DNA from: a virus
Reading direction: 5' to 3' (one strand)
DNA: 64,000 nucleotides
IMG/VR virus record: IMGVR_UViG_3300042879_003054
Made by a program: the position numbers and the translations under genes. Below the pieces are notes generated by a model. It saw only the letters and a list, made by a program, of their open reading frames with translations. It did not search any database and was not told the origin of the DNA. Shown here piece after piece: positions 2,229 through 18,625 of this stretch. Position 1 is the stretch's first letter, and every line of letters starts with the position of its first letter.

Positions 2229-2819
2229 TTAACTTCTATTTCCCCAAGTAATATCTGGGTATGCTTCAGAAACTATTTCTTTAGTAATTTTATATCTTGT
2301 TTGTAATTTTTTATCTTTACACAAACAAAGAATCTCTGCTTCTAATGGATGTAAACCTTCCAACAGATTTACAAAAATATTTTCTCTACGAATACCATTT
2401 AAAGAATCATTACCACCCTTTACAAAGTTATAAAATTTATCATATTCCTTACGTATTGTAGAATACTTTTGGTCAATTGCTCCGATTGAAGAATCACTCA
2501 ATTGTTTAACTGCTTCTTCAATTCTTTCAGACATTGTTGTCGTCTTCATCGTATTATCCCCAAAAAAGGGAACATCACCTTCTGGTAAAACGGATATTAC
2601 CGATTCATCAAAATTCCATATAAAAATTGCTTTTAATGAATCGTGCTCATATTTTTTAAGCACTTCGACTTTTTTTACATTAGTTCTTTGTGAACTAGCA
2701 AGATTTAAAACTTCAAAAGCAAAAGGATTTGCAGGAAGATCTATATTTTCATTTACAACTTCTTTTGCTTTTGAAGTGGTTCTTTTAGTCGTTGTTTTTT
2801 CTTTTACTGTCATTGTCAT
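2229..2819 (-). CDS. conserved T4-like phage hypothetical protein
   Basis: RRE.IF.NLLEGLHP.EAE motif. Confidence 0.8.
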   Translation of the reverse strand: MTMTVKEKTTTKRTTSKAKEVVNENIDLPANPFAFEVLNLASSQRTNVKKVEVLKKYEHDSLKAIFIWNFDESVISVLPEGDVPFFGDNTMKTTTMSERIEEAVKQLSDSSIGAIDQKYSTIRKEYDKFYNFVKGGNDSLNGIRRENIFVNLLEGLHPLEAEILCLCKDKKLQTRYKITKEIVSEAYPDITWGNRS

Positions 2820-2856
2820 AAAATTAATGCAGAATTAAATTAATTAAATTTATTTA

Positions 2857-3093
2857 TCAATCATTATCACTATCATCTTCATCAATAAAATAATCAGGAT
2901 CAAATCTTACTGAAACAATTTCTTGATCAATTAACTCACCATTTTTATTGTAAAACTCTGGATGATAAGCAATTTGTTTTGGTCCTTCTTGATAGTTCAT
3001 CATATATTCTCTGGCACTCCATCCGATAAAAAGTCCCACCATAAAAAATAAAACAATTAAAAAAGAACCAAACACTAAATATGTTGCTGTCAT
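2857..3093 (-). CDS. membrane protein with N-terminal TM helix
   Basis: hydrophobic residues ~5-25; HPE..D/N..G motif. Confidence 0.7.
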   Translation of the reverse strand: MTATYLVFGSFLIVLFFMVGLFIGWSAREYMMNYQEGPKQIAYHPEFYNKNGELIDQEIVSVRFDPDYFIDEDDSDND

Positions 3094-3110
3094 TGATCTT
3101 CTCCGAGAGA

Positions 3111-3296
3111 CTACTTTTTTTTCATTATATCTAATTCAATTTTGAGGTATATCTCTCTTTTGAGTAGAGAAAATACTTTTTCAAAATTGAAAGTTTTTGG
3201 TATCAATTTTGTTTCTTTTTCCTCTCCTCCTTTTTTTCTAAGCATTAACTCAAAACCACGATTAATGCTATAATTTTCAGAATTATTTATGGACAC
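3111..3296 (-). CDS. hypothetical protein
   Basis: ORF track; packed with neighbours. Confidence 0.6.
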   Translation of the reverse strand: MSINNSENYSINRGFELMLRKKGGEEKETKLIPKTFNFEKVFSLLKREIYLKIELDIMKKK

Positions 3297-3298
3297 GA

Positions 3299-3547
3299 TC
3301 AGAGCATATTATTTTCTTGTAAGTATGTGATTGTATCAGTACATCCACCAATATGTTTATCGTTTAGAATAACTTGAGGAAAAGTTGAACCTTCTCCAAA
3401 TTCTGCATAAAATTGTTCTCTATTGAAATCAGTATTAAGTTCATAAGAAATAACATTGTATTTCTTTGTTTCACTCAAAAGAGTTAAAACCATTTTAACC
3501 TTATCACAATAGGGGCAACCTTGCTTTGAATAAATTGTAAAATTCAT
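3299..3547 (-). CDS. nrdC: glutaredoxin
   Basis: CPYC active site, TFPQV, IGG. Confidence 0.92.
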   Translation of the reverse strand: MNFTIYSKQGCPYCDKVKMVLTLLSETKKYNVISYELNTDFNREQFYAEFGEGSTFPQVILNDKHIGGCTDTITYLQENNML

Positions 3548-3946: not shown

Positions 3947-5542
3947 TTAGATTCCAAATTTACGTCTAAATGCTTCAAAGTTTATTTGGATTTCTTCATT
4001 TGTCAATTCACGATTATAAATCATCACGTTGTTCCATAAGCAACTATAGTTATTTGTTCCTGTTCCAAAGATTTTATCAAGATTAATTTGATCAGAATTA
4101 TTCCAATCGTTAGAAGAACCTAAAGTTTTGGCATTTCCATTTGTAGAAATAAAGGTATAGTAATTCGTCGTAACACCAAAAACAACAAAAGTCCAATCAG
4201 AAAAAGATGCTGATTGACTTGATGGTATAGGGTTTGATGTGTTAGTACTCGGATAAGATCTACCGGCACCCCAAACAATTCTTACTGCACCTTGCCCACC
4301 ATCTCCACCATCCCTCACATATCTATAAGTTGATGTAGAAGTTCTTGAACCACCTCCACCACCATAAAGTCCTCCTACCGATCTACTCGTTTGAGACGTA
4401 GAATTTCCAGATGAAGATGTTCCTCTACTTCCATCAGATCCAGGTGACCCAGAATTTACGGTTAGAGATGTTGATCCACCTGTTCCTCCAAATCCATTAG
4501 ATCCAGATGCATATATTCCAACTCCACCACCAGGATTAACTACTTCCTCAGTTATAGAAGTAGAACTATTTCCACCTCCACCTCCGCCTCCACCAGAACC
4601 ATTAGACCCATTTGCGCTAAGCGTACCGCCATTTGCACCGGCACCACCATTTCCAGTATATCCGCCAGCACCTCCTCCTCCACCACCACGACTACTACTT
4701 CCATTACCACCATTACCACCAGAACCACCATTAGTCCTCATGGTTCCACTGGAAGATCCTCCACTACCACCACTTGCATCAGTAAAGATTCCATATGCCC
4801 CACCACCTCCTCCTCCACCTTCAAGAAGAGAAGTGCCAGAATGTGATACTGTTTTTATATAACTAGATTCACCAGAATTTCCAGTAGTTCCTGCAGAACC
4901 AGCATTATTATAATTGTAGGAACGACCACCAGTTCCACCGGCACCAACTCTAATATAAAGAGTATCTCCAGGAGTTACAGAAGTGGAACCATAAGCAAGT
5001 CCTCCTCCTCCACCTCCAGCACCCTCATGATTACTATCACCACCACCGGCACCTCCACCACCACCAATACAAACAGCAGTGATAGAAGTTACCCCAACAG
5101 GAACAGACCAGGTTGTAGTGCCAACTGAAGTGAATACTTTTTGTCCTTCTATTTTTATATTATCTTTTATTTCCCACCCATTAGAAGTTCCATATCTTCC
5201 AAATTCAATTGCTTTAGTTCCAGATTGTTGCTGAAACCAATAATTCCATTCACTATTTGTTAAAGTCTGTGGTTTAATCATCATACAAATAGTAAAACCA
5301 CTACCTGTTGAAGCAGATACAGAAACATTTGTATTGCTTATATAAGATGTTGAACCTGTTGATATAAAATGACTTGTGGTCCCTGAAGATACAAATGTTT
5401 GATTGAATGAAGTATTAGTTGCACCATATCCAACTAGATTCTTGATTGCTGTTCCGACACCAGAATATGATTTTGGATTTCCGGCATCATTCAGATAAAT
5501 CAACCCATCAGTAACGATTCTAGTTTTAATGTATCTTCCCAT
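3947..5542 (-). CDS. LamG/ConA-like virion protein with inserted glycine-rich domain
   Basis: DGLIYLNDAGNPKSY N-term and IYNRELT.EEI.INFEA.R.KFG C-term typical of phage LamG proteins; central Gly-rich block. Confidence 0.75.
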   Translation of the reverse strand: MGRYIKTRIVTDGLIYLNDAGNPKSYSGVGTAIKNLVGYGATNTSFNQTFVSSGTTSHFISTGSTSYISNTNVSVSASTGSGFTICMMIKPQTLTNSEWNYWFQQQSGTKAIEFGRYGTSNGWEIKDNIKIEGQKVFTSVGTTTWSVPVGVTSITAVCIGGGGGAGGGDSNHEGAGGGGGGLAYGSTSVTPGDTLYIRVGAGGTGGRSYNYNNAGSAGTTGNSGESSYIKTVSHSGTSLLEGGGGGGGAYGIFTDASGGSGGSSSGTMRTNGGSGGNGGNGSSSRGGGGGGAGGYTGNGGAGANGGTLSANGSNGSGGGGGGGGNSSTSITEEVVNPGGGVGIYASGSNGFGGTGGSTSLTVNSGSPGSDGSRGTSSSGNSTSQTSRSVGGLYGGGGGSRTSTSTYRYVRDGGDGGQGAVRIVWGAGRSYPSTNTSNPIPSSQSASFSDWTFVVFGVTTNYYTFISTNGNAKTLGSSNDWNNSDQINLDKIFGTGTNNYSCLWNNVMIYNRELTNEEIQINFEAFRRKFGI

Positions 5543-5746
5543 TTAATTATCAACTTTTTTCTTGTATTTATGAGCACAAGCGCTCCTTGCCCAAGCACGA
5601 CTTGGACTATTTACATAAGAACAAGACTTTTGCTTTTCCTTACAGTGAGGTCATTTTGCATCTGGGGGATCAGCAATATATCCATCAGGAGTGTACATCC
5701 TCTTCTTTTTAAGATTCTCAGATTGTTTTCTTTTACGATGATTCAT
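5543..5746 (-). pseudogene. 67-codon ORF with an in-frame TGA at codon 32 (pseudogene, readthrough or selenocysteine)
   Basis: MNHRKRK...DPPDAK*PHCKEKQKSC...C..KKKVDN*; fills the gap between both neighbours exactly. Confidence 0.6.
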
Positions 5747-6054
5747 ACCATAAAAGGTTCTGCTTGCCTATCAGGAAGTTTGATTTGTGGTAATTGATTA
5801 ATTTTCTCAACCATCCACTCATCTTGATGCTCTTGATAAGGTTTGGTATTGATAGCAATTTCATTCGTTGGCAGTGCCTTTGGTATCTCAACATCAATCA
5901 CCTGACCCATCAGAAACTTATTGCGAGTATAAGTGCGGTTTTGGGGATCAAAAGAAACCATCGCAAGAGCATCTTCCTCCAAACCACAATCCATAAGTTT
6001 TTTTCCAGTGTTTCTATTAATTACCGAAAAATATTCTTCATTATACTTTTTCAT
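5743..6054 (-). CDS. hypothetical protein
   Basis: ORF track; AGGA RBS upstream. Confidence 0.7.
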   Translation of the reverse strand: MKKYNEEYFSVINRNTGKKLMDCGLEEDALAMVSFDPQNRTYTRNKFLMGQVIDVEIPKALPTNEIAINTKPYQEHQDEWMVEKINQLPQIKLPDRQAEPFMV

Positions 6055-6159
6055 TTTTAGTTTCCTTTTCTTTATTATACCCCCTGTTCATGGGTCTGTA
6101 AAGTTGTGGCCAAGTATCACGAATGATCTCATCCAATTTATAAGGTGTTTCTGAACTAA

Positions 6160-7182
6160 TCATCTAACGTGATGTCCCCCAAACATAAACCTCATTCCGT
6201 TCAAGATTTTTGCTCCAAATGATCCAAGATTGCGTGAGTTAAATCTTTCAAATAGCGCAGTAGTAATGACAGGAGCGGGAACCCCCAGATCCACAGCGGC
6301 AGAAACAGTCCAACGACCCTCACCGCTGTCGGATACGCCTCCAGAGAACTGTTTAAGGCTACCATCCCTGCGTAGCACATCAGCAGTAAGGTCAAGTAAC
6401 CAAGACCCAACCACGCTACCACGACGCCATAACTCAGCAACCTCAGCAACATCAATATCATAGCAATAGGATTCCGGGTCTGCCATTGGGGCAACCTCTG
6501 CATCTCCTTCTCTGACATACTGAGCACCTGCATTTGCATTCTTGATAATGTTGAATCCTTCTGCGTATGCCTGCATAATACCATACTCAATACCATTATG
6601 CACCATCTTTACAAAGTGCCCTGCACCTGGTCCACCACAATGCAACCACCCATATTCAGCAGAAGTTATGTCTGAGTCAAATTGAGTCCTGGGGGCAGCG
6701 TCAATTCCTGGGGAGAGTGCATTAAAAATGCGCGAACAAGTGGAGACTGCAGTATCTCCACCTCCAACCATAAGACAGTATCCACGATCCAAACCGTAAA
6801 CACCACCACTAGTCCCGCAATCAATATACTGGATACCCTGCTTTGCAAGTCGTTCTGCTCTCTTCCGACTGTCCTTAAAATTGCTATTGCCATGATCAAT
6901 AATAATATCTCCTTCACCACAATATCGTAGTAACTCATTAATCGTCTCCTCTACTGTTTCTACAGGAACTACCATCTGAAAAATTCCTGGTTTATTTTGT
7001 CCCTTGACTACTTGAACAAGGCTTTGTATAGAAGTTGTAACACCATTAACATATCCGTTTTTGTATGCTTCTTGTGCTTTTTCATAATTTCTACGATACC
7101 CCCAAACTTCTATTCCTGCCTTCATCATACGACGAGACATTCCTTCACCCATTCTACCTAATCCAATTAATCCTACTTTCAT
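6160..7182 (-). CDS. gnd: 6-phosphogluconate dehydrogenase
   Basis: GLIGLGRMG, IDHGN, DCGTSGG, GAGHFVKMVHNGIEYG, FGGH; start probably MKVG at 7182. Confidence 0.96.
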   Translation of the reverse strand: MKVGLIGLGRMGEGMSRRMMKAGIEVWGYRRNYEKAQEAYKNGYVNGVTTSIQSLVQVVKGQNKPGIFQMVVPVETVEETINELLRYCGEGDIIIDHGNSNFKDSRKRAERLAKQGIQYIDCGTSGGVYGLDRGYCLMVGGGDTAVSTCSRIFNALSPGIDAAPRTQFDSDITSAEYGWLHCGGPGAGHFVKMVHNGIEYGIMQAYAEGFNIIKNANAGAQYVREGDAEVAPMADPESYCYDIDVAEVAELWRRGSVVGSWLLDLTADVLRRDGSLKQFSGGVSDSGEGRWTVSAAVDLGVPAPVITTALFERFNSRNLGSFGAKILNGMRFMFGGHHVR

Positions 7183-11913: not shown

Positions 11914-12993
11914 TCAACCGATGGTTGGAGCAGTCAAGGCCACAGGTGTGTTCTCAACAGCAGCAAGGTCCAAAGGAAAATTATGTGCATTTCTTTCGTG
12001 CATCACTTCGAGTCCGAGTCCAGCACGATTCAGAACATCAGCCCAGGTATTAACTACACGGTTCTGACTATCAACGATTGACTGGTTGAAATTAAAGCCA
12101 TTCAAATTGAAAGCCATCGTAGAAACACCAAGAGCAGTGAACCAGATGCCTACAACGGGCCAGCTAGCAAGGAAGAAGTGCAGTGAACGTGAGTTATTAA
12201 AGGAAGCATATTGGAAAATAAGGCGTCCAAAATAACCGTGAGCAGCAACGATGTTATAAGTCTCTTCTTCTTGACCGAACTTGTAACCATAGTTCTGCGA
12301 TTCAGTTTCAGTTGTTTCACGAACCAGTGAAGAAGTCACAAGAGAACCGTGCATTGCGGAGAAAAGACTTCCTCCGAAGACACCAGCAACTCCAAGCATA
12401 TGGAATGGGTGCATCAGGATGTTGTGCTCTGCCTGGAACACAAGCATGTAGTTGAACGTACCAGAGATACCAAGAGGCATACCATCAGAGAAAGAACCTT
12501 GACCGAAAGGATAGACCAAGAATACGGCAGTCGCAGCAGCAACAGGAGCACTGTAAGCAACCATAATCCAAGGACGCATACCAAGACGGTAAGAAAGTTC
12601 CCACTCACGACCCATATAGCAGAAGACACCAATGAGGAAGTGGAAGACTACCAACTGGTAAGGACCACCATTATAGAGCCATTCATCAAGACTTGCTGCT
12701 TCCCAGATAGGATAGAAGTGAAGTCCGATTGCGTTGCTTGAAGGAACAACAGCACCAGAAATGATGTTGTTTCCGTACATGAGTGAACCAGCAACAGGTT
12801 CACGAATACCATCAATGTCCACCGGAGGTGCGGCAATGAAGGCGACGATGAAACATACAGTAGCAGCAAGCAGTGTAGGAATCATCAGAGTTCCGAACCA
12901 ACCAACATAAAGGCGGTTGTTCGTTGAAGTAACCCACTGGCAAAATTGTTCCCAGGAGTTAGTAGATTGTCTTTGTGCAATTGTAGCAGTCAT
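11914..12993 (-). CDS. psbA: photosystem II D1 protein (no intron)
   Basis: NRLYVGWFG...[13 protein letters not shown]; continuous ORF. Confidence 0.99.
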
Positions 12994-13230: not shown

Positions 13231-13440
13231 TTATTCTGCTTCTGGGAGTGGAATTTCTTCTGGTTGTGGTTCTGGTTGTGGAAGAGTCACACCTATTTGT
13301 GTAAGATACTCAATCGCACCTTGAACCTTCAAAAAAAGTTCTCTTTTTGTTGTGGCCTTAGTTTGAAGTCCTTCCAATTCAAGGGATAGGTCTTGTGCTT
13401 GCTTTACAAGATTCGCAAGATGTTCCTGTTGTTCAGTCAT
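13231..13440 (-). CDS. coiled-coil hypothetical protein
   Basis: probable start MTEQQEHL; LKVQGAIEYL motif. Confidence 0.7.
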   Translation of the reverse strand: MTEQQEHLANLVKQAQDLSLELEGLQTKATTKRELFLKVQGAIEYLTQIGVTLPQPEPQPEEIPLPEAE

Positions 13441-13535
13441 AAAATTAAATAAACTCAATTTATTTATAGTATAATACATAAAGACAAATAACAAAATAAC
13501 ATCAATAAATAGTTACAAACATTACTTTTAGAAAA

Positions 13536-13997
13536 ATGAAAAGATTAGCACTTATCTTTTCGTTATTCTTCACTACTCCTGCTTTTGCTGGTGAAATCAC
13601 ATCAAAAATCACTGACTCAATTCAATTAAATGTTCAGGGTGCTGCGGTACAATCAGAAAGAGTCGGTGCCTCATATGCAGTTTCAGGCACCAATATTAAT
13701 GTAACAACTCTTGGAGGAGTTGGTGGAGCAGGTTCTTATGGTATCAATACAAACGGACAAGCATTTAGTTTCTCTGAAACATCAATTACTGCAGATGTTG
13801 ATGTTACCTCTCAGTCGGCAGCTTCTGGAACAATTGCTTCTCCCAACCTTTATAGCAACTCTACTACTCAATTAGGTGGAGATAAGGGTTCTCTTGCTGG
13901 TACTTTAAGCGGAACTGGTGTTCCAACAATTACTGCGGGTGGTTCAGGAACAACTGGAACAGCACAACGTAGCGTTGAATTGAGCGTATTTAAGTGA
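13536..13997 (+). CDS. exported beta-rich protein A
   Basis: signal peptide ending PAFA; S/T/G-rich; AATAAATA late-promoter-like sequence upstream. Confidence 0.8.
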   Translation: MKRLALIFSLFFTTPAFAGEITSKITDSIQLNVQGAAVQSERVGASYAVSGTNINVTTLGGVGGAGSYGINTNGQAFSFSETSITADVDVTSQSAASGTIASPNLYSNSTTQLGGDKGSLAGTLSGTGVPTITAGGSGTTGTAQRSVELSVFK

Positions 13998-14356
13998 GAC
14001 ATATAACTCTCGGACTGGTTACAGTTCTGGGAGTTATAAGTCCTTCATACGCTGGACCCGTAACTCCCAACTTCACCAGTGGGACTATTACATCTGAGAC
14101 TAAAACACGCACTGAAGTTATTGAGACTATCAGGCAAATAGAATATACTACTGGAACATCTTATACAGTCACTGGCACCAACATTAATATACCAGGAACT
14201 CCTGCTCCTGGTATGAATTACACAATTCAAACTCAAGGTGCTCCATTCCAATTTAGTGAGACTTATTTGACTCCTGGAGTGGCAAAGGAAACATGGATAG
14301 ACAGAAAAACTACGGAAGATTCTATAACAAATACTATATCAGTCTTCACTCAATAA
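13994..14356 (+). CDS. exported beta-rich protein B (paralog of A)
   Basis: signal peptide ending PSYA; shares SY.V.GTNIN and F.FSET with A; GTG start overlapping A stop. Confidence 0.8.
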   Translation: MRHITLGLVTVLGVISPSYAGPVTPNFTSGTITSETKTRTEVIETIRQIEYTTGTSYTVTGTNINIPGTPAPGMNYTIQTQGAPFQFSETYLTPGVAKETWIDRKTTEDSITNTISVFTQ

Positions 14357-14997
14357 TTTTTATGCCCCCTACCTTTTGGCATTTTAGTTTTATTTCTCCC
14401 ATTAATAAACCCAATTGGACACTCAAAATGAGTTAATATTTCTTCTCCAGTTAATGGGTTGTGATACCACTTTCTTCCAACATTATGAGAACCCCATAAT
14501 TTTTTTCTTTCATTTAAATTAAAATGACTTTTTTGAGTTTTCTGTGAGTGAATATCCCTATTCTCTTGATTCGAAAATCTTTCTTTTTGAGATTTAGACA
14601 TAAGTTCTTTAGACTTTTCCATTCCCTCTTTATGTGATTTTTTATATTCTTCATTTTCCCACATTTTTTTAGAGGCAATAGAATGTGACTCTCTTGATTT
14701 CTCCCTATTGTTTTCAGTCAAAGTATTACCTCCGTCCCCCCCATCAGCAAAGTTACACAACAAACCACCTTCAACTTTTTTACCATATATTTTTATCATT
14801 CTTCTCTCTTCATCCATACATTCATTTCTCGTTCCTTCAAATATTATTTCATATTGAAATGAATTTTCATCTTCTGCTTTTTGCCAAGTATTTAAATGGA
14901 AATTATTTCTTCTTTTTTTAGAAATACATCTATCACCTTGCCCCATTCCAACATAAAAGGGAATTCCCCCCCGTTTATGGATATAAACATAAGTCAT
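14350..14997 (-). mobile_element. GIY-YIG-like homing endonuclease, antisense within the + strand operon
   Basis: YVYIH....PFYVGMG...R...E...N.ADGGDGG; C-terminal KWYHN...F..GR; TATAAATA at 15026-15033. Confidence 0.8.
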
Positions 14998-15552
14998 AGT
15001 ATTTCTGCTTGGTTAGTAACATTATTATTTATAATACCACAAGGTTATGTAAGAGCACAACAAGCACCAAGTAATACGAATATTGCAGGTCCAAGTGCTT
15101 CAGCAACAGGTAGTGTTGTGAATCAGGCAGTTCAGGTGCTTCAAGGTCCTTATGCCTTGAATACATTTGGTAATGGAGTTTCATGTCAGGGTCCTACAAT
15201 GAGTGTTGCTCCATTTGCTTTGGGAAGTTTCAATGGAAATCAAGACCCAACATCATACCAATCTCATAGTGGAAACTTTGGAGTAAGTTTGGGTTTTAAT
15301 TTTCCTCTAGATGGTTCATTACAAGAACTTTGTAAGGCAAGAGCTCGTGTAGAAATTTCAAGACAACAAGCAGAATCGGATAAGGCAAGACTTGACTTTG
15401 AACTTGTGAGACTTTTGAAGTGTGGTGAAGCATTAAAGAATGGAATTTCATTTCATCCACAAAGTCCCTATGCAAAAATTTGTGCTGATATTATTGTGAA
15501 GTATCCAAGAGTACAGGATGTAGCAAATGGAAATAAAACCAATAAAAATTAA
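14977..15552 (+). CDS. exported protein C with amphipathic beta-hairpin, coiled coil and 4 Cys
   Basis: probable ATG at 14977 gives a signal peptide ending YVRA; NFGVSLGFNFPLD then helical segment. Confidence 0.7.
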   Translation: MDINISHSISAWLVTLLFIIPQGYVRAQQAPSNTNIAGPSASATGSVVNQAVQVLQGPYALNTFGNGVSCQGPTMSVAPFALGSFNGNQDPTSYQSHSGNFGVSLGFNFPLDGSLQELCKARARVEISRQQAESDKARLDFELVRLLKCGEALKNGISFHPQSPYAKICADIIVKYPRVQDVANGNKTNKN

Positions 15553-16219
15553 TTCTTCTAGGATTGATGCTCCATCAATTATTCCAACAATAGAACCTCC
15601 CGTAATTAGGAAAGCAGAACGATCTGTGATACCAAGTGTTGATATGCCAATTATTAATATGCCAGATACCACTATAAAGTATCCAGTGATCGATGTTCCA
15701 ACTCAAGAAGAGTTTGATGCTGCCGTAAGAGCAGAGCAAAAAAAGAAAGAAGAAGAAAAAGAAGAAAAATCCAGAGGACTTCCAGATACTACCCCTACCC
15801 CTCAACTGCCCCCAGTTGTTCAAACCCCCCCAGATGATCGGAATATTTCCGATCAACCAATACAAACTAGTAATTTAGGAGTACCCGTCATTGAAGTACC
15901 AATCATCGGGGAAGTTCCAGTTCCTCCGAAAGAACAGGTTATGCTTGCTGGCACCACTGCTACTGCTTCTGTTGCTGCGGCTATTGTTGGCAAATCTTTG
16001 GTGGAATGGATGGTAGGTAAAATGAAACCTATTGTTCAGCAGATATTCATAAGGGGTAAGAAACTTTTGAATAGAGATCTTACTCCTTATGAACTTCAGG
16101 TTTATTTTGCTTTTGAAAAAACTTCTTCTATGAAAAAAGTCAATAAGTTACTCAAAAAAGAAGGGAAGAACGAAAAGAAAGAACAATATAAGAAGTTTCA
16201 CTCAAAGCAATTATTTTGA
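15527..16219 (+). CDS. Pro-rich protein D with hydrophobic segment and basic tail
   Basis: ORF track; overlaps end of gene C. Confidence 0.75.
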   Translation: MEIKPIKINSSRIDAPSIIPTIEPPVIRKAERSVIPSVDMPIINMPDTTIKYPVIDVPTQEEFDAAVRAEQKKKEEEKEEKSRGLPDTTPTPQLPPVVQTPPDDRNISDQPIQTSNLGVPVIEVPIIGEVPVPPKEQVMLAGTTATASVAAAIVGKSLVEWMVGKMKPIVQQIFIRGKKLLNRDLTPYELQVYFAFEKTSSMKKVNKLLKKEGKNEKKEQYKKFHSKQLF

Positions 16220-16414
16220 TTTATTCTTTATTTTAAATGCAACATCACCAAGAAAAGAACCAACAGCAAGTATAAGAACTTTAGAATAAGAATCTCTACT
16301 AGCATTATCAAGTTCTACTTGTCCTTCTGTACGAATCGCAACAGATTCTACAGCAGAAATCATTAAAGCACTCCAAATGATTAAGAATAGTCTTACAATA
16401 TTAAAGTAAATCAC
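16211..16414 (-). CDS. small membrane protein (2 TM)
   Basis: two hydrophobic stretches. Confidence 0.65.
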   Translation of the reverse strand: MIYFNIVRLFLIIWSALMISAVESVAIRTEGQVELDNASRDSYSKVLILAVGSFLGDVAFKIKNKSK

Positions 16415-16815
16415 TTCTTACGCTTTGCGTCAAGTTCAGCAAAATCCTTTTTCTTTGTTCCTCCTGAGTATTCCCAAGCATATCCTTCAGAGATCATACG
16501 ATCATTAAGACATACATCATCAACATATAACCTTCCAAGAATTCTTCCATACTTTTCAGTTGAGTCTGGAAGTTCCGTTTTAATGAGAATATTTTTTTTA
16601 CCATCAAGATTTTTTTTCAACCATTCTTTGACTTCTAATCCAAGTGCTTTTTCTTTGAGATCGGTTGTACGACTTTCCGGAGTATCAACACCACTAAGGC
16701 GTACTCGCTTAGTAAGAGAAATATCGAAGCCAAGATCAATATCCGCATCGATTGTGTCACCATCAACTACTCTCAATACTTGTTTTACTCTGTAGATATA
16801 TGGGTCTTTATCCAT
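16411..16815 (-). CDS. thermonuclease (SNase family)
   Basis: RVVDGDT, RVRLSGVDTPE, KYGRILG. Confidence 0.92.
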   Translation of the reverse strand: MDKDPYIYRVKQVLRVVDGDTIDADIDLGFDISLTKRVRLSGVDTPESRTTDLKEKALGLEVKEWLKKNLDGKKNILIKTELPDSTEKYGRILGRLYVDDVCLNDRMISEGYAWEYSGGTKKKDFAELDAKRKK

Positions 16816-17027
16816 TAGAATGGTAATTTAAACTTCTCAGTATTTAGTTTAGGAATAGGTAATTTTTCAAATGCTTTTGATACCTGTTTCTCTACAACAG
16901 CACCAACAAATGCTTCCGGATTATCTAGAATCTTCTGTGCTTTTTGATAAGTAATGTATGCTCCTACGCAAAGAGCACCACTAATGCTTAGACTTGTGAT
17001 TGATAGAATTAGACTCAGATGTTTCAT
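16815..17027 (-). CDS. small membrane protein
   Basis: N-terminal hydrophobic helix. Confidence 0.65.
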   Translation of the reverse strand: MKHLSLILSITSLSISGALCVGAYITYQKAQKILDNPEAFVGAVVEKQVSKAFEKLPIPKLNTEKFKLPF

Positions 17028-17125
17028 CTTTCATCTCCTCGGATGCTAACTTTAATATGTAGTAAATTACATAAGCAGTAAATACCAAACCAGAACAAAG
17101 AATTATAACTACACCCCAAGGAAAT

Positions 17126-17326
17126 TCATTCATCCCAAACACCTTCTTGCTTATGAATCCATATCTTTAAATCTTTTACATATTTTCTTAATATTTGTGC
17201 TTGTTCTTCATGCCAAAAATCACCCGTCTCCATATGAAGGCGGGTGTGATTATCTATTGCTTTAAGAATTTGGTGAATTGGGGCGTTCCAACATTGACGC
17301 TTGGGAGTATTCCACTCTCTTGGCAT
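17126..17326 (-). CDS. hypothetical protein
   Basis: ORF track. Confidence 0.7.
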   Translation of the reverse strand: MPREWNTPKRQCWNAPIHQILKAIDNHTRLHMETGDFWHEEQAQILRKYVKDLKIWIHKQEGVWDE

Positions 17327-17448: not shown

Positions 17449-17805
17449 TTATGCTCCTGTGCGTGGTTGAACGAATCCTTCACCATCTTCTACTTTAGTT
17501 TCCAGTGCTTCAACTCTTGCTTCAAGAGTTTCTGGTGGTGCTTCAGGGGCAGGTGGTTCTGGTGGAGTTTCTACAAACTCTTCTCTTTTAGGTTCTTGCT
17601 TTTTTTCATCTTCATCATCTCCACCTTTCTTCATCGTATTAATACCAAAAGTAGCAGCAGATGCTGTGAAGACTGTAGCGATAAAAGTTGGGTCCATCTT
17701 AGATAGAGTGCCCGCATAACTTGCAGTAAGAAGAGCAGCAGACCAACCCAAGATACATATACGAATTAATTGTCCCATAGCATTTTCGTTTTTCTTAGTA
17801 GTCAT
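17449..17805 (-). CDS. 2-TM membrane protein (holin candidate)
   Basis: two TM segments with charged tail; directly after the lysozyme gene. Confidence 0.55.
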   Translation of the reverse strand: MTTKKNENAMGQLIRICILGWSAALLTASYAGTLSKMDPTFIATVFTASAATFGINTMKKGGDDEDEKKQEPKREEFVETPPEPPAPEAPPETLEARVEALETKVEDGEGFVQPRTGA

Positions 17806-17823: not shown

Positions 17824-18495
17824 TTAACCTTTTTTCCAAGATTCACCTTCTGCTTTTCTTCTACGAGCAAGACCTGCTTCTACATTTGAACCAGGATTTC
17901 TGTAGAGATATAAAGCATCTGGAACTAAGTCCCATTCTTTATTCTTCAGTCTCTTAGTGATAGTATTAAAATCACCAGAACCATAAAAACCAGCACCGAG
18001 ATTATAAGCAAAAGAAAGTAGGGCACCTCTTTTGCCGTCAGACATTTCATTCCAGTGTGGAATTTTACGAAGTGAAGGAAGAAACTCTCTCTTACATTGT
18101 TCAATCAAAAGTTCATCTGCTTCTGTTTGTGTGAGAGTATCACCCATATGGAATGCAGATCCATCTTTCTTACGAGTTGAACCCCAACCAATTGTGATTG
18201 GAAGTCCACCAGATAGAGGATCGGGATATGCCTTTAGATGACATCCTTCAAACTCTTTGATTAATTTAAGGCCTATCATAGGCATATCGTCACCACCAAC
18301 TACAGGAGCGGCAGCAGTTGGTGCTGATGCTGGTGCCGCATTACCCTTTTTTCCTCTGTAGATCTCCGCCCAATCTACGTTATCTTCCAGATACTTGACT
18401 GGTAGGTTATCTTCTAACCATTGAACTGCTTTCACATGATTAGGGTTCTTCTCGTCATAGAACTTGAAGAAGTTATGTAAATCGATTCTTGCCAT
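17824..18495 (-). CDS. GH24 lysozyme (endolysin) with N-terminal accessory domain
   Basis: IKEFEG..LKAYPD...TIGWG, SFAYNLG, GLARRRKAE; start probably MARID. Confidence 0.92.
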   Translation of the reverse strand: MARIDLHNFFKFYDEKNPNHVKAVQWLEDNLPVKYLEDNVDWAEIYRGKKGNAAPASAPTAAAPVVGGDDMPMIGLKLIKEFEGCHLKAYPDPLSGGLPITIGWGSTRKKDGSAFHMGDTLTQTEADELLIEQCKREFLPSLRKIPHWNEMSDGKRGALLSFAYNLGAGFYGSGDFNTITKRLKNKEWDLVPDALYLYRNPGSNVEAGLARRRKAEGESWKKG

Positions 18496-18625
18496 TGTCG
18501 TCTCCAAAGTATTTGTTGAAAAGTTTGGAAGCTTCTAAGTGCTTTCCGTGATTTGTAAGATCTTTAATTCTTTGTAAGATCTTTCTCTTGAAATTAATCG
18601 AGGAGTTTTCATTCTCCATAAGTAT

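Follow-up and report, generated by a model that had tools for sequence, protein, structure and literature searches.

The window analysed here is a stretch of 64,000 nucleotides from the IMG/VR virus record IMGVR_UViG_3300042879_003054, whose nearest named relatives are found in Kyanoviridae, namely the Synechococcus phages DSL-LC02 and DSL-LC03 from a freshwater lake. The minus strand of this 64-kb window carries 66 open reading frames (ORFs) of at least 110 amino acids (aa), which together cover 82% of it, and the only plus-strand ORFs of that size that are not shadowed by a longer minus-strand ORF are four genes between positions 13536 and 16219, designated A, B, C and D. The initial annotation of the window had singled them out as four genes opposing all the rest, and both the ORFs and their coordinates were confirmed. 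The same annotation had taken them for an operon behind a late-like promoter; the four genes and the promoter stand, but the stretch is not uninterrupted, as a putative antisense endonuclease gene lies between B and C. The order A-B-C-D, whose conservation had been proposed as a check, is kept in nearly all of 80 related loci. Together with a fifth gene, X, these genes are considered here as a conserved cyanophage module that is tentatively connected with the cell envelope of the host and its lysis.

A T4-type late promoter motif, AATAAATA, is located at positions 13504-13511 on the plus strand, 24 nt before the ATG of A. The motif NATAAATA is described as the late-promoter motif of cyanomyoviruses (review PMC2984593). 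Among relatives, exactly this sequence occurs 20-27 nt before A in 55 of 107 unique upstream regions; in background windows of 80 nt its frequency is 0.9%. The late-like promoter is thus present in the window and its position before A is conserved among relatives; in the myoviruses it is this motif, as the single indication, that suggests late timing. The region 13441-13511 has the layout of a divergent late promoter, with TATAAATA on the minus strand (13468-13461) besides the plus-strand motif before A; the minus-strand copy is situated about 20 nt ahead of the probable ATG (~13441-13443) of the gene at 13231-13443, which belongs to phrog_20934.

Gene A (13536-13997, plus strand) encodes a Thr/Ser/Gly-rich, predicted exported protein of 153 aa (phrog_564; T4-GC 237; Syn9 gp167), which is tagged as 'OMP1 protein' in some GenBank records. 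Gene B (13994-14356, plus strand) overlaps A by 4 nt, starts with GTG and encodes a predicted exported protein of 120 aa (Pfam DUF6322, PF19847; phrog_650; T4-GC 236; Syn9 gp166; P-SSP7 044). The two proteins align by BLASTP with 32% identity over 93 residues (E 5e-10) and have in common an SY.V.GTNIN motif, an F.FSET motif and a terminal strand ending in S-V-F, so that the paralogy claimed in the initial annotation is upheld. B scores well above the gathering threshold of DUF6322 (52.4 bits against a cut-off of 30.6, E 8.3e-14); A remains below the cut-off of the same Pfam profile, and yet its ESM Atlas clusters consist of DUF6322 proteins in 96-100% of their members, placing it among the DUF6322/'OMP1' viral clusters of that resource. 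By sequence comparison, A is a myovirus-only paralog of B. There are no Cys residues in A, and mostly none in B.

Signal peptides were scored by a crude test on the unique homologs of each family. The test was positive in 112 of 116 homologs of A, 185 of 197 of B and 170 of 189 of C, but in only 32 of 184 of D, which agrees with the signal peptides that had been noted for A, B and C. The predicted cleavage sites are of the signal peptidase I (SPase I) type, AFA/GE in A, SYA/GP in B and VRA/QQ in C, and A, B and C are accordingly predicted to be Sec-exported late proteins.

The structural model of B (94 sequences; predicted local distance difference test, pLDDT, 80; predicted template modelling score, pTM, 0.34) is an elongated sheet with two very long strands of 24 and 25 residues, and the conserved motifs are gathered in its small distal end. 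Read with the strand limits of the model, the sequence places many Thr and charged residues on either face of the long strands, and B therefore looks like a soluble, elongated periplasmic protein rather than one that contributes a membrane strand. No known fold could be assigned: Foldseek and VIA-align returned only the long-hairpin stems of pores and chains of phage tails, at E values of at least 0.028 and Z scores of at most 3.1.

Gene C (14977-15552, plus strand) encodes a predicted exported protein of 191 aa (phrog_848/1755; T4-GC 235; Syn9 gp165; P-SSP7 045) for which there is no Pfam entry; the frame is open from 14896, with the likely start at the ATG at 14977. Four Cys residues are invariant across 52 diverse homologs, and the homologs have a conserved strand of alternating hydrophobic residues followed by a helix of 42 residues, so the signal, the four Cys and the transition from strand to helix that had been described from the window copy are all present in the family. 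The AlphaFold2 model of the monomer, built on these 52 sequences (mean pLDDT 76.5, and above 80 for residues 50-170), begins with two short strands, continues with a hairpin whose two strands have 13 residues each, an invariant Pro-Leu-Asp turn and the 42-residue helix, and ends in an ordered tail that contains Cys. In the second strand of the hairpin a dyad pattern of hydrophobic and small or polar residues is conserved, and the sheet packs against the helix, resulting in a compact alpha/beta unit. Marine forms of C carry insertions of 0 to about 100 aa at the tip of the hairpin as well as variable Ser/Pro-rich C-terminal tails, a pattern typical of exposed loops and linkers. Domain fusions were considered for the longer homologs and rejected, as the extra length comes from mis-called starts, hairpin-tip insertions and Ser/Pro tails. 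Public annotation often starts C far upstream, which gives products of about 300 aa with an N-terminal third that overlaps B in another frame; examples are ACG-2014e gp182 (4285-5196 of its locus) and Syn9 gp165 (4211-5095 of its locus), B being unannotated in ACG-2014e, and many of the 'long' C proteins in databases have this spurious N-terminal extension.

Gene D (15527-16219, plus strand) encodes a Pro-rich protein of 230 aa (phrog_9426; T4-GC 234; Syn9 gp164; P-SSP7 042). Its conserved core consists of an Ala/Thr-rich hydrophobic segment followed by a basic amphipathic tail, which agrees with the earlier description of a Pro-rich protein with a hydrophobic segment and a basic tail; the Pro-rich N-terminal part is variable. 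The hydrophobic segment is the only one in the protein, lies near the C-terminus and is weak (Kyte-Doolittle, KD, value below 1.6 in the window copy). D is probably a membrane-associated protein. In the marine myoviruses, four Cys residues are conserved in the N-terminal Pro-rich part of D (68 of 70 unique sequences; examples are Syn9 gp164 and the gene at 5096-5908 of the ACG-2014e locus), and none of these four is present in the D proteins of the freshwater myoviruses and of nearly all podoviruses. Should the marine Cys residues form disulfides, the N-terminal part would be periplasmic, that is, the protein would be oriented N-out, C-in.

Gene X (17449-17805, minus strand) encodes a protein of 118 aa (Pfam DUF6450; phrog_721; T4-GC 218; Syn9 gp161; P-SSP7 043), in which two hydrophobic segments are combined with charged ends. 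An alignment of 22 diverse X proteins retains two weakly hydrophobic segments and the charged ends; in P-SSP7 043 one segment was detected by a crude KD scan, and the GenBank note for this protein predicts two transmembrane (TM) regions. X is regarded here as a candidate holin and as the linked fifth member of the module. A T4-type lysozyme gene (17824-18507, minus strand; Phage_lysozyme, E 1.7e-21) lies 18 nt upstream of X, and wherever a freshwater-clade locus includes the two genes (19 loci), they are 16-20 nt apart. Neither a signal nor a TM segment was found in this lysozyme, and without an export signal it would need a holin. No member of the module has a match in NCBIfam.

The gene content of 240 IMG/VR loci was mapped with hidden Markov models (HMMs) built for the five module genes and the lysozyme. 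In the freshwater myovirus clade A, B, C and D are encoded on one strand and X, with the lysozyme, on the other. The marine myoviruses have A, B and C on one strand and D and X on the opposite one in 51 of 80 loci, and the marine podoviruses have D, X, B and C in this order and on the same strand in 53 of 80 loci, with 5 more in which a lysozyme gene follows 1.2-2.4 kb downstream; most of the remaining loci are cut short at contig edges. The median distance between C and X ranges from 248 to 2330 nt. D is found on the other strand in the marine myoviruses and in DSL-LC03, and upstream in the podoviruses; because it changes both strand and position it is not a fixed fourth cistron. Nevertheless, B, C, D and X stay linked in two unrelated phage families despite the changed order and strand. 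The initial annotation had remarked on lysis-type genes beside the plus-strand group, and the lysozyme 18 nt from X together with the linkage of X to the module in both families gives substance to that remark.

The podovirus counterpart is best seen in P-SSP7, where genes 042-045 are four linked genes corresponding to D (042), X (043), B (044) and C (045). D of the window matches P-SSP7 042 with a BLASTP E value of 3e-6, both proteins belonging to phrog_9426, and X matches 043 at 1e-11, both belonging to phrog_721/DUF6450. This run of genes is situated between the tail fibres and TerS, where T7 carries its holin gene 17.5. B and C are likewise present in the T7-like cyanopodoviruses P-SSP2 and P-SCSP1 as well as P-SSP7, and A is absent from podoviruses.

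The numbers of phage records with a tblastn match are 461 for C, 304 for B and 266 for A, and all of these records are Synechococcus or Prochlorococcus phages or uncultured marine viruses. A set of 5.8 billion proteins contains 1365 homologs of C in 309 clusters at 50% identity, all of them unnamed or 'hypothetical'. The families DUF6322, phrog_848 and DUF6450 gave no match in any of 14 cellular control genomes. A scan of genome contigs for host homologs returned five loci. Four of them lie in metagenome-assembled genomes (MAGs) and carry A, B and C together with D, X or both; the remaining locus is a piece of 423 bp. Since the MAG contigs hold these phage genes together, they are most likely binned phage DNA. 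The MAGs bear the names Synechococcus, Cyanobacteriota, Synechococcaceae and Sphingobacteriales, and the 423-bp contig, with a fragment of C, is labelled Pseudoalteromonas and is most likely cyanophage DNA as well. Syn9 has DUF6322 (gp166/167), phrog_848 (gp165) and DUF6450 (gp161), and S-PM2 has none of the three. The 'structural' proteins S-PM2_163 and S-PM2_165 were considered as A and C and rejected, as S-PM2 lacks the A/B, C and X families.

The module genes have been recorded before as hypothetical. Sullivan et al. 2010 (Environ Microbiol, PMC3037559) described a cassette of 'five hypothetical proteins', T4-GC 218, 219, 234, 235 and 237, together with a plasmid-stability gene. It is carried by 15 of 16 cyanomyoviruses and lacking in S-PM2. 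When shifted by 661 nt, the coordinates in the supplement of that paper correspond exactly to Syn9 gp161 (X), gp163, gp164 (D), gp165 (C) and gp167 (A), T4-GC 236 being gp166 (B), and therefore the cassette itself is already on record; its absence from S-PM2 was reproduced here by the family profiles. That paper attributes no function to the cassette and mentions neither a prediction of export, a counterpart in podoviruses nor a connection with lysis. The window's clade differs from it in lacking gp163 and the plasmid-stability gene between X and D, in having D on the strand of A-B-C, and in having the lysozyme beside X. What is added here is the predicted export, the podovirus counterpart and the functional proposal. 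In the marine myoviruses, the pair between X and D consists of the 'plasmid stability' gene and a hypothetical protein of ~190-210 aa (T4-GC 219), which are gp162 and gp163 in Syn9; the pair spans 2591-3492 of the Syn9 locus and 6076-6887 of the ACG-2014e locus. Neither gene occurs in the window's clade or in podoviruses, and no Pfam family matches either of them.

What function could such a module perform? Kongari et al. 2018 found P-SSP7, Syn9, P-SSM2 and others to be spanin-less, with 20 picocyanophages among 91 such phages, and suggested as a possible spanin substitute the combination of a membrane protein with a C-terminal transmembrane domain (TMD) and an outer-membrane protein. Earlier, Sullivan et al. 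2005 had pointed out that the T7 genes for lysis, 3.5, 17.5 and 18.5, are missing from P-SSP7, and had considered the ORFs at the homologous positions as possible replacements. P-SSP7 genes 29-51, which are assigned to the late expression class according to a paper citing Lindell 2007, are followed here as the late class of this phage. In our literature search, no paper on DUF6322 or DUF6450 was found, nor any functional study on a cyanophage holin, spanin or endolysin.

Taken together, we tentatively propose, with a confidence a little short of even, that A, B, C, D and X constitute a conserved cyanophage cell-envelope module that acts as the periplasmic and outer-membrane arm of the lysis apparatus in place of spanins. 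This reading is suggested by the late timing, the tight pairing of lysozyme and X, the lysozyme without an export signal, the podovirus run of genes at the position of the T7 holin and the lack of spanins. It is supported by the export signals, the late promoter, the paralogy of A and B, the linkage in two phage families, the shared absence from S-PM2, the fact that no cellular homologs were found and the absence of the families from the rows examined in a virion proteome table. The initial annotation had offered action on the outer membrane during lysis as one option among several, and it is this option that the context favours. In such a scheme, A, B, C and D would build up late in infection, in the periplasm and at the outer membrane; X would then permeabilise the inner membrane and free the cytoplasmic lysozyme; and once the wall is cut, the pre-positioned beta-ribbons of A and B, the disulfide-bonded C, and D at the inner membrane would destabilise the outer membrane or break through it, which is the task of spanins in other phages and for which picocyanophages have no spanins. 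Here we infer the holin function of X, the topology of D, the physical complex and the breach of the outer membrane. The more specific idea, that A-D, triggered by the holin-like X, are an unrecognised multi-protein machine, unrelated to spanins or disruptin, with which the phages would breach the outer membrane of picocyanobacteria, marine and freshwater alike, or its tethers to the wall when infection ends, is possible but must be viewed with more doubt.

The comparison with known lysis systems illustrates both aspects of this proposal. On the one hand, the two-component spanins (lambda Rz/Rz1, T7 gp18.5/18.7) resemble the proposed role in being late, pre-positioned in the envelope and encoded beside a holin-like gene and a lysozyme; the module likewise occupies the position of the T7 lysis genes in podoviruses, has a protein with periplasmic Cys and a long helix (C) and a membrane-associated partner (D), and its linkage to X and the lysozyme, its promoter and the late class in P-SSP7 correspond to the neighbourhood of a holin-endolysin cassette that is expected of late spanin genes. 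On the other hand, there is no sequence or fold similarity to spanins, and the module has three to four components instead of two. A, B and C, with cleavage sites of the SPase I type, are devoid of the lipobox with Cys at +1 that characterises o-spanins of the Rz1 type; and i-spanins have an N-terminal type II TMD and a periplasmic coiled coil, unlike D, in which the hydrophobic segment is C-terminal and the N-terminal part is Pro-rich and not a coiled coil. X in turn resembles the class II holins or pinholins (phage 21 S68) in its small size (~95-120 aa), its charged C-terminus and its two segments rich in Ala, Thr and Gly, which are weakly hydrophobic, and in the freshwater clade, though not in the marine myoviruses, it stands next to an endolysin gene as holin genes do. 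Unlike the described class II holins, it belongs to no annotated holin family, and hole formation by X is a prediction. Disruptin (phiKT gp28), the other known substitute for spanins, performs the outer-membrane step in a spanin-less phage, according to a preprint (bioRxiv 10.1101/515445); it is one small peptide, cationic and set free from the cytoplasm, and the module differs from it in consisting of several predicted Sec-exported folded proteins.

Several observations weigh against assigning the module to lysis. S-PM2 lyses Synechococcus WH7803 without it, and it is therefore not indispensable. In the marine myoviruses no lysozyme gene was found within 8 kb of the module, and in S-TIM5/S-TIM61 X is far from A-B-C; the surroundings of X in S-H68 and S-TIM5 gave no further information. 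X matches no described holin family, its only hits being Pfam DUF6450 and PHROGs of unknown function, with nothing in NCBIfam. The folds are uninformative, with best Z scores of 3.9 for C and 3.1 for B; D lacks a signal peptide and has a weak hydrophobic segment; and none of the sequence features that define spanins is present, neither a lipobox in A, B or C nor an N-terminal TMD in D. The role of every member is a prediction, and a protein with two TM segments accompanied by secreted proteins would fit a superinfection-exclusion set of the Imm/Sp type as well.

Superinfection exclusion or receptor masking, in which the exported proteins and the 2-TM protein would alter the envelope so as to prevent DNA injection or the loss of progeny on debris, is the best surviving alternative, although on our analysis an unlikely one. 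Its analogues in logic are T4 Imm (2-TM) with the periplasmic Sp, or T5 Llp, and from general knowledge of Imm the size and 2-TM layout of X are similar. The restriction of the module to cyanophages, its predicted targeting to and specificity for the host envelope and its occurrence in two families with the same hosts all suit such a role, as do the hypervariable hairpin-tip insertion of C and its variable Ser/Pro tails, which resemble what would be seen under diversifying surface pressure. However, known exclusion genes act early, and the module has a promoter of the late type and P-SSP7 genes in the late class; no similarity to Imm, Sp or Llp was detected in Pfam, PHROGs or NCBIfam; and exclusion leaves the pairing of lysozyme and X and the synteny with the T7 lysis position unexplained.

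The linkage to X and the lysozyme would be equally expected if A, B and C were periplasmic regulators of either, similar to antiholins or to RI, or inhibitors that act until assembly is complete. The T4 r genes are missing from cyanomyoviruses (review PMC2984593), and the control of lysis timing must therefore use other proteins; moreover, as exported soluble proteins devoid of anchors, A, B and C would be comparable with T4 RI in location, as far as general knowledge of RI goes. Nevertheless, control of timing is judged quite unlikely, given that three to four conserved and apparently abundant proteins of structural type, with long beta-ribbons and a disulfide-bonded domain, exceed the needs of known antiholins, and that the module is retained even in podoviruses of 45 kb with very few accessory genes.

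The scheme put forward in the initial annotation, with A as the major subunit and B as the minor subunit of a fibre or pore, C as a TolC-like outer-membrane pore and D as the anchor, here taken to serve surface remodelling or the import or export of solutes, depends largely on whether C is related to TolC. C indeed resembles TolC and other outer membrane factors in the conserved passage from an amphipathic beta-strand through an invariant Pro to a long helix, and sub-threshold matches to the Pfam family OEP (PF02321) recur in the C family, OEP being the most recurrent Pfam family there; yet only four of the 52 alignment members reach E<1, the best at 4.4e-4, and the window protein itself scores 13.3-13.8 bits against a cut-off of 22. 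The OEP profile has no match in the Syn9 genome, and a sequence-profile search of the PDB with C returned nothing. When Foldseek was run on C, as had been suggested, TolC and OprM led the list at E values of 0.58-2.2 and probabilities of at most 0.38, below significance. The wide VIA-align comparison matched only the helix, with Z up to 4.3, and a second look with the monomer model gave TolC-family chains Z scores of 2.0-2.4 at a root-mean-square deviation of ~14 A. LptE-type lipoproteins, which were the best entries of this second look (Z 3.8-3.9), were treated as noise; the viral structure library yielded only uncharacterised cyanophage homologs, and the ESM Atlas no named look-alike of C. 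In addition, TolC comprises ~430-500 aa in two tandem repeats, each of which contributes two strands to the barrel besides long helices; C has 191 aa with one hairpin, one 42-residue helix and four Cys, and in its model the sheet packs against the helix. C is accordingly not assigned to the TolC family, every method being sub-threshold, while C may have a remote kinship to one hairpin-helix unit of TolC.

Only four PDB representatives reach Z >=2 for B in VIA-align (Z 2.3-3.1), and all are stems that long hairpins form in oligomeric pores, or belong to a phage tail; together with the 'OMP1' label of A in some records, such stems of oligomeric beta-barrel pores are the points in favour of the fibre or pore scheme on the side of A and B. 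The stems of beta-barrel pore-forming toxins of the aerolysin or anthrax PA type are thus the only structural look-alikes of B (Foldseek E of at least 0.028), but their hairpins are amphipathic, unlike the long strands of B with Thr and charged residues on both faces, which are polar and not membrane-like. Neither an usher, a chaperone nor a secretion ATPase is present, and the podoviruses keep B, C, D and X without A, so that the proposed 'major subunit' is dispensable. With every structural or profile match below significance, the scheme is improbable.

That the proteins are ordinary virion components, such as tail-fibre accessories, would agree with late expression and with the position directly after the tail-fibre genes in P-SSP7, but it is very improbable, because the cleavable Sec signals would remove A, B and C from the cytoplasm where virions are assembled, T4-like and T7-like phages have the module in common without otherwise sharing such virion parts, and T4-GC 218, 219 and 234-237 do not appear in the examined rows of the virion proteome table for S-SM1, Syn9 and S-PM2. 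In the file of that table '218' occurs nowhere and '235' only as the ORF count of Syn9.

Phages that lyse Prochlorococcus and Synechococcus provide one of the major routes by which carbon and nutrients are released in the ocean. To our knowledge, no holin or outer-membrane-disrupting protein has been identified for picocyanobacterial phages, and the module provides four to five named candidates for these missing lysis steps. If the assignment to lysis is correct, the proteins would represent a new class of lysis proteins, DUF6322, DUF6450 and two families without a Pfam entry would acquire a function, and the annotation of hundreds of cyanophage genomes could be improved. If A-D act as a multi-protein machine, it would supply the missing last lysis step for most T4-like and T7-like cyanophages, one that controls the release of carbon and nutrients from highly abundant phototrophs. 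Even if the module serves exclusion or surface remodelling instead, no other envelope-directed function of cyanophages would be as widespread.

The gene that interrupts the plus-strand group is a putative GIY-YIG-like homing endonuclease gene (14350-14997, minus strand; 215 aa), which is inserted between B and C and is not a member of the module. Its N-terminus has the motif-like sequence YVYIHKRGGIPFYVGMG, the match to phrog_7168 ('homing endonuclease') is weak (E 4.8e-4), and no Pfam or NCBIfam match was found. It has a late promoter of its own, TATAAATA, at 15033-15026 on the minus strand, and overlaps the start of C by 21 nt. Among the 80 related loci it is clearly present in two, and a third has a weak match (27%) at another place; in the other loci B overlaps C, and in these endonuclease-free relatives C starts with MDRQKNYRRF... 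within the 3' end of B. The former 5' end of C survives in the window as a dead stub (MDRQKNYGRFYNKYYISL...; 14293-14436, plus strand) that was severed by the insertion. The insertion point is in the region coding for the signal peptide of C, which now begins at the ATG at 14977 with a different signal peptide; the new start and hydrophobic core (MDINISHSISAWLVTLLFIIPQGYVRA/QQ) come from the insert and are antisense to the 5' end of the endonuclease gene. It appears that the mobile element brings a replacement N-terminus for the gene that it splits. The arrangement of a stub and a start supplied by the insert is also found in two related loci (L010 and L011).

Elsewhere on the minus strand, psbA is located at 11914-12993, and a gene for an SNase-type thermonuclease (16411-16815; E 3.3e-15; phrog_452) lies between D and X, a position kept in 54 of 80 freshwater-clade loci and outside the module of the marine myoviruses and podoviruses. 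Flanking the nuclease gene between D and X are three small minus-strand ORFs (16211-16414, 16815-17027 and 16981-17142) of 67, 70 and 53 aa, the last of which matches phrog_25130/814 (function unknown). Each has one strongly hydrophobic N-terminal segment, and they could represent further membrane components of the lysis region, as candidates for an antiholin or an anchor.

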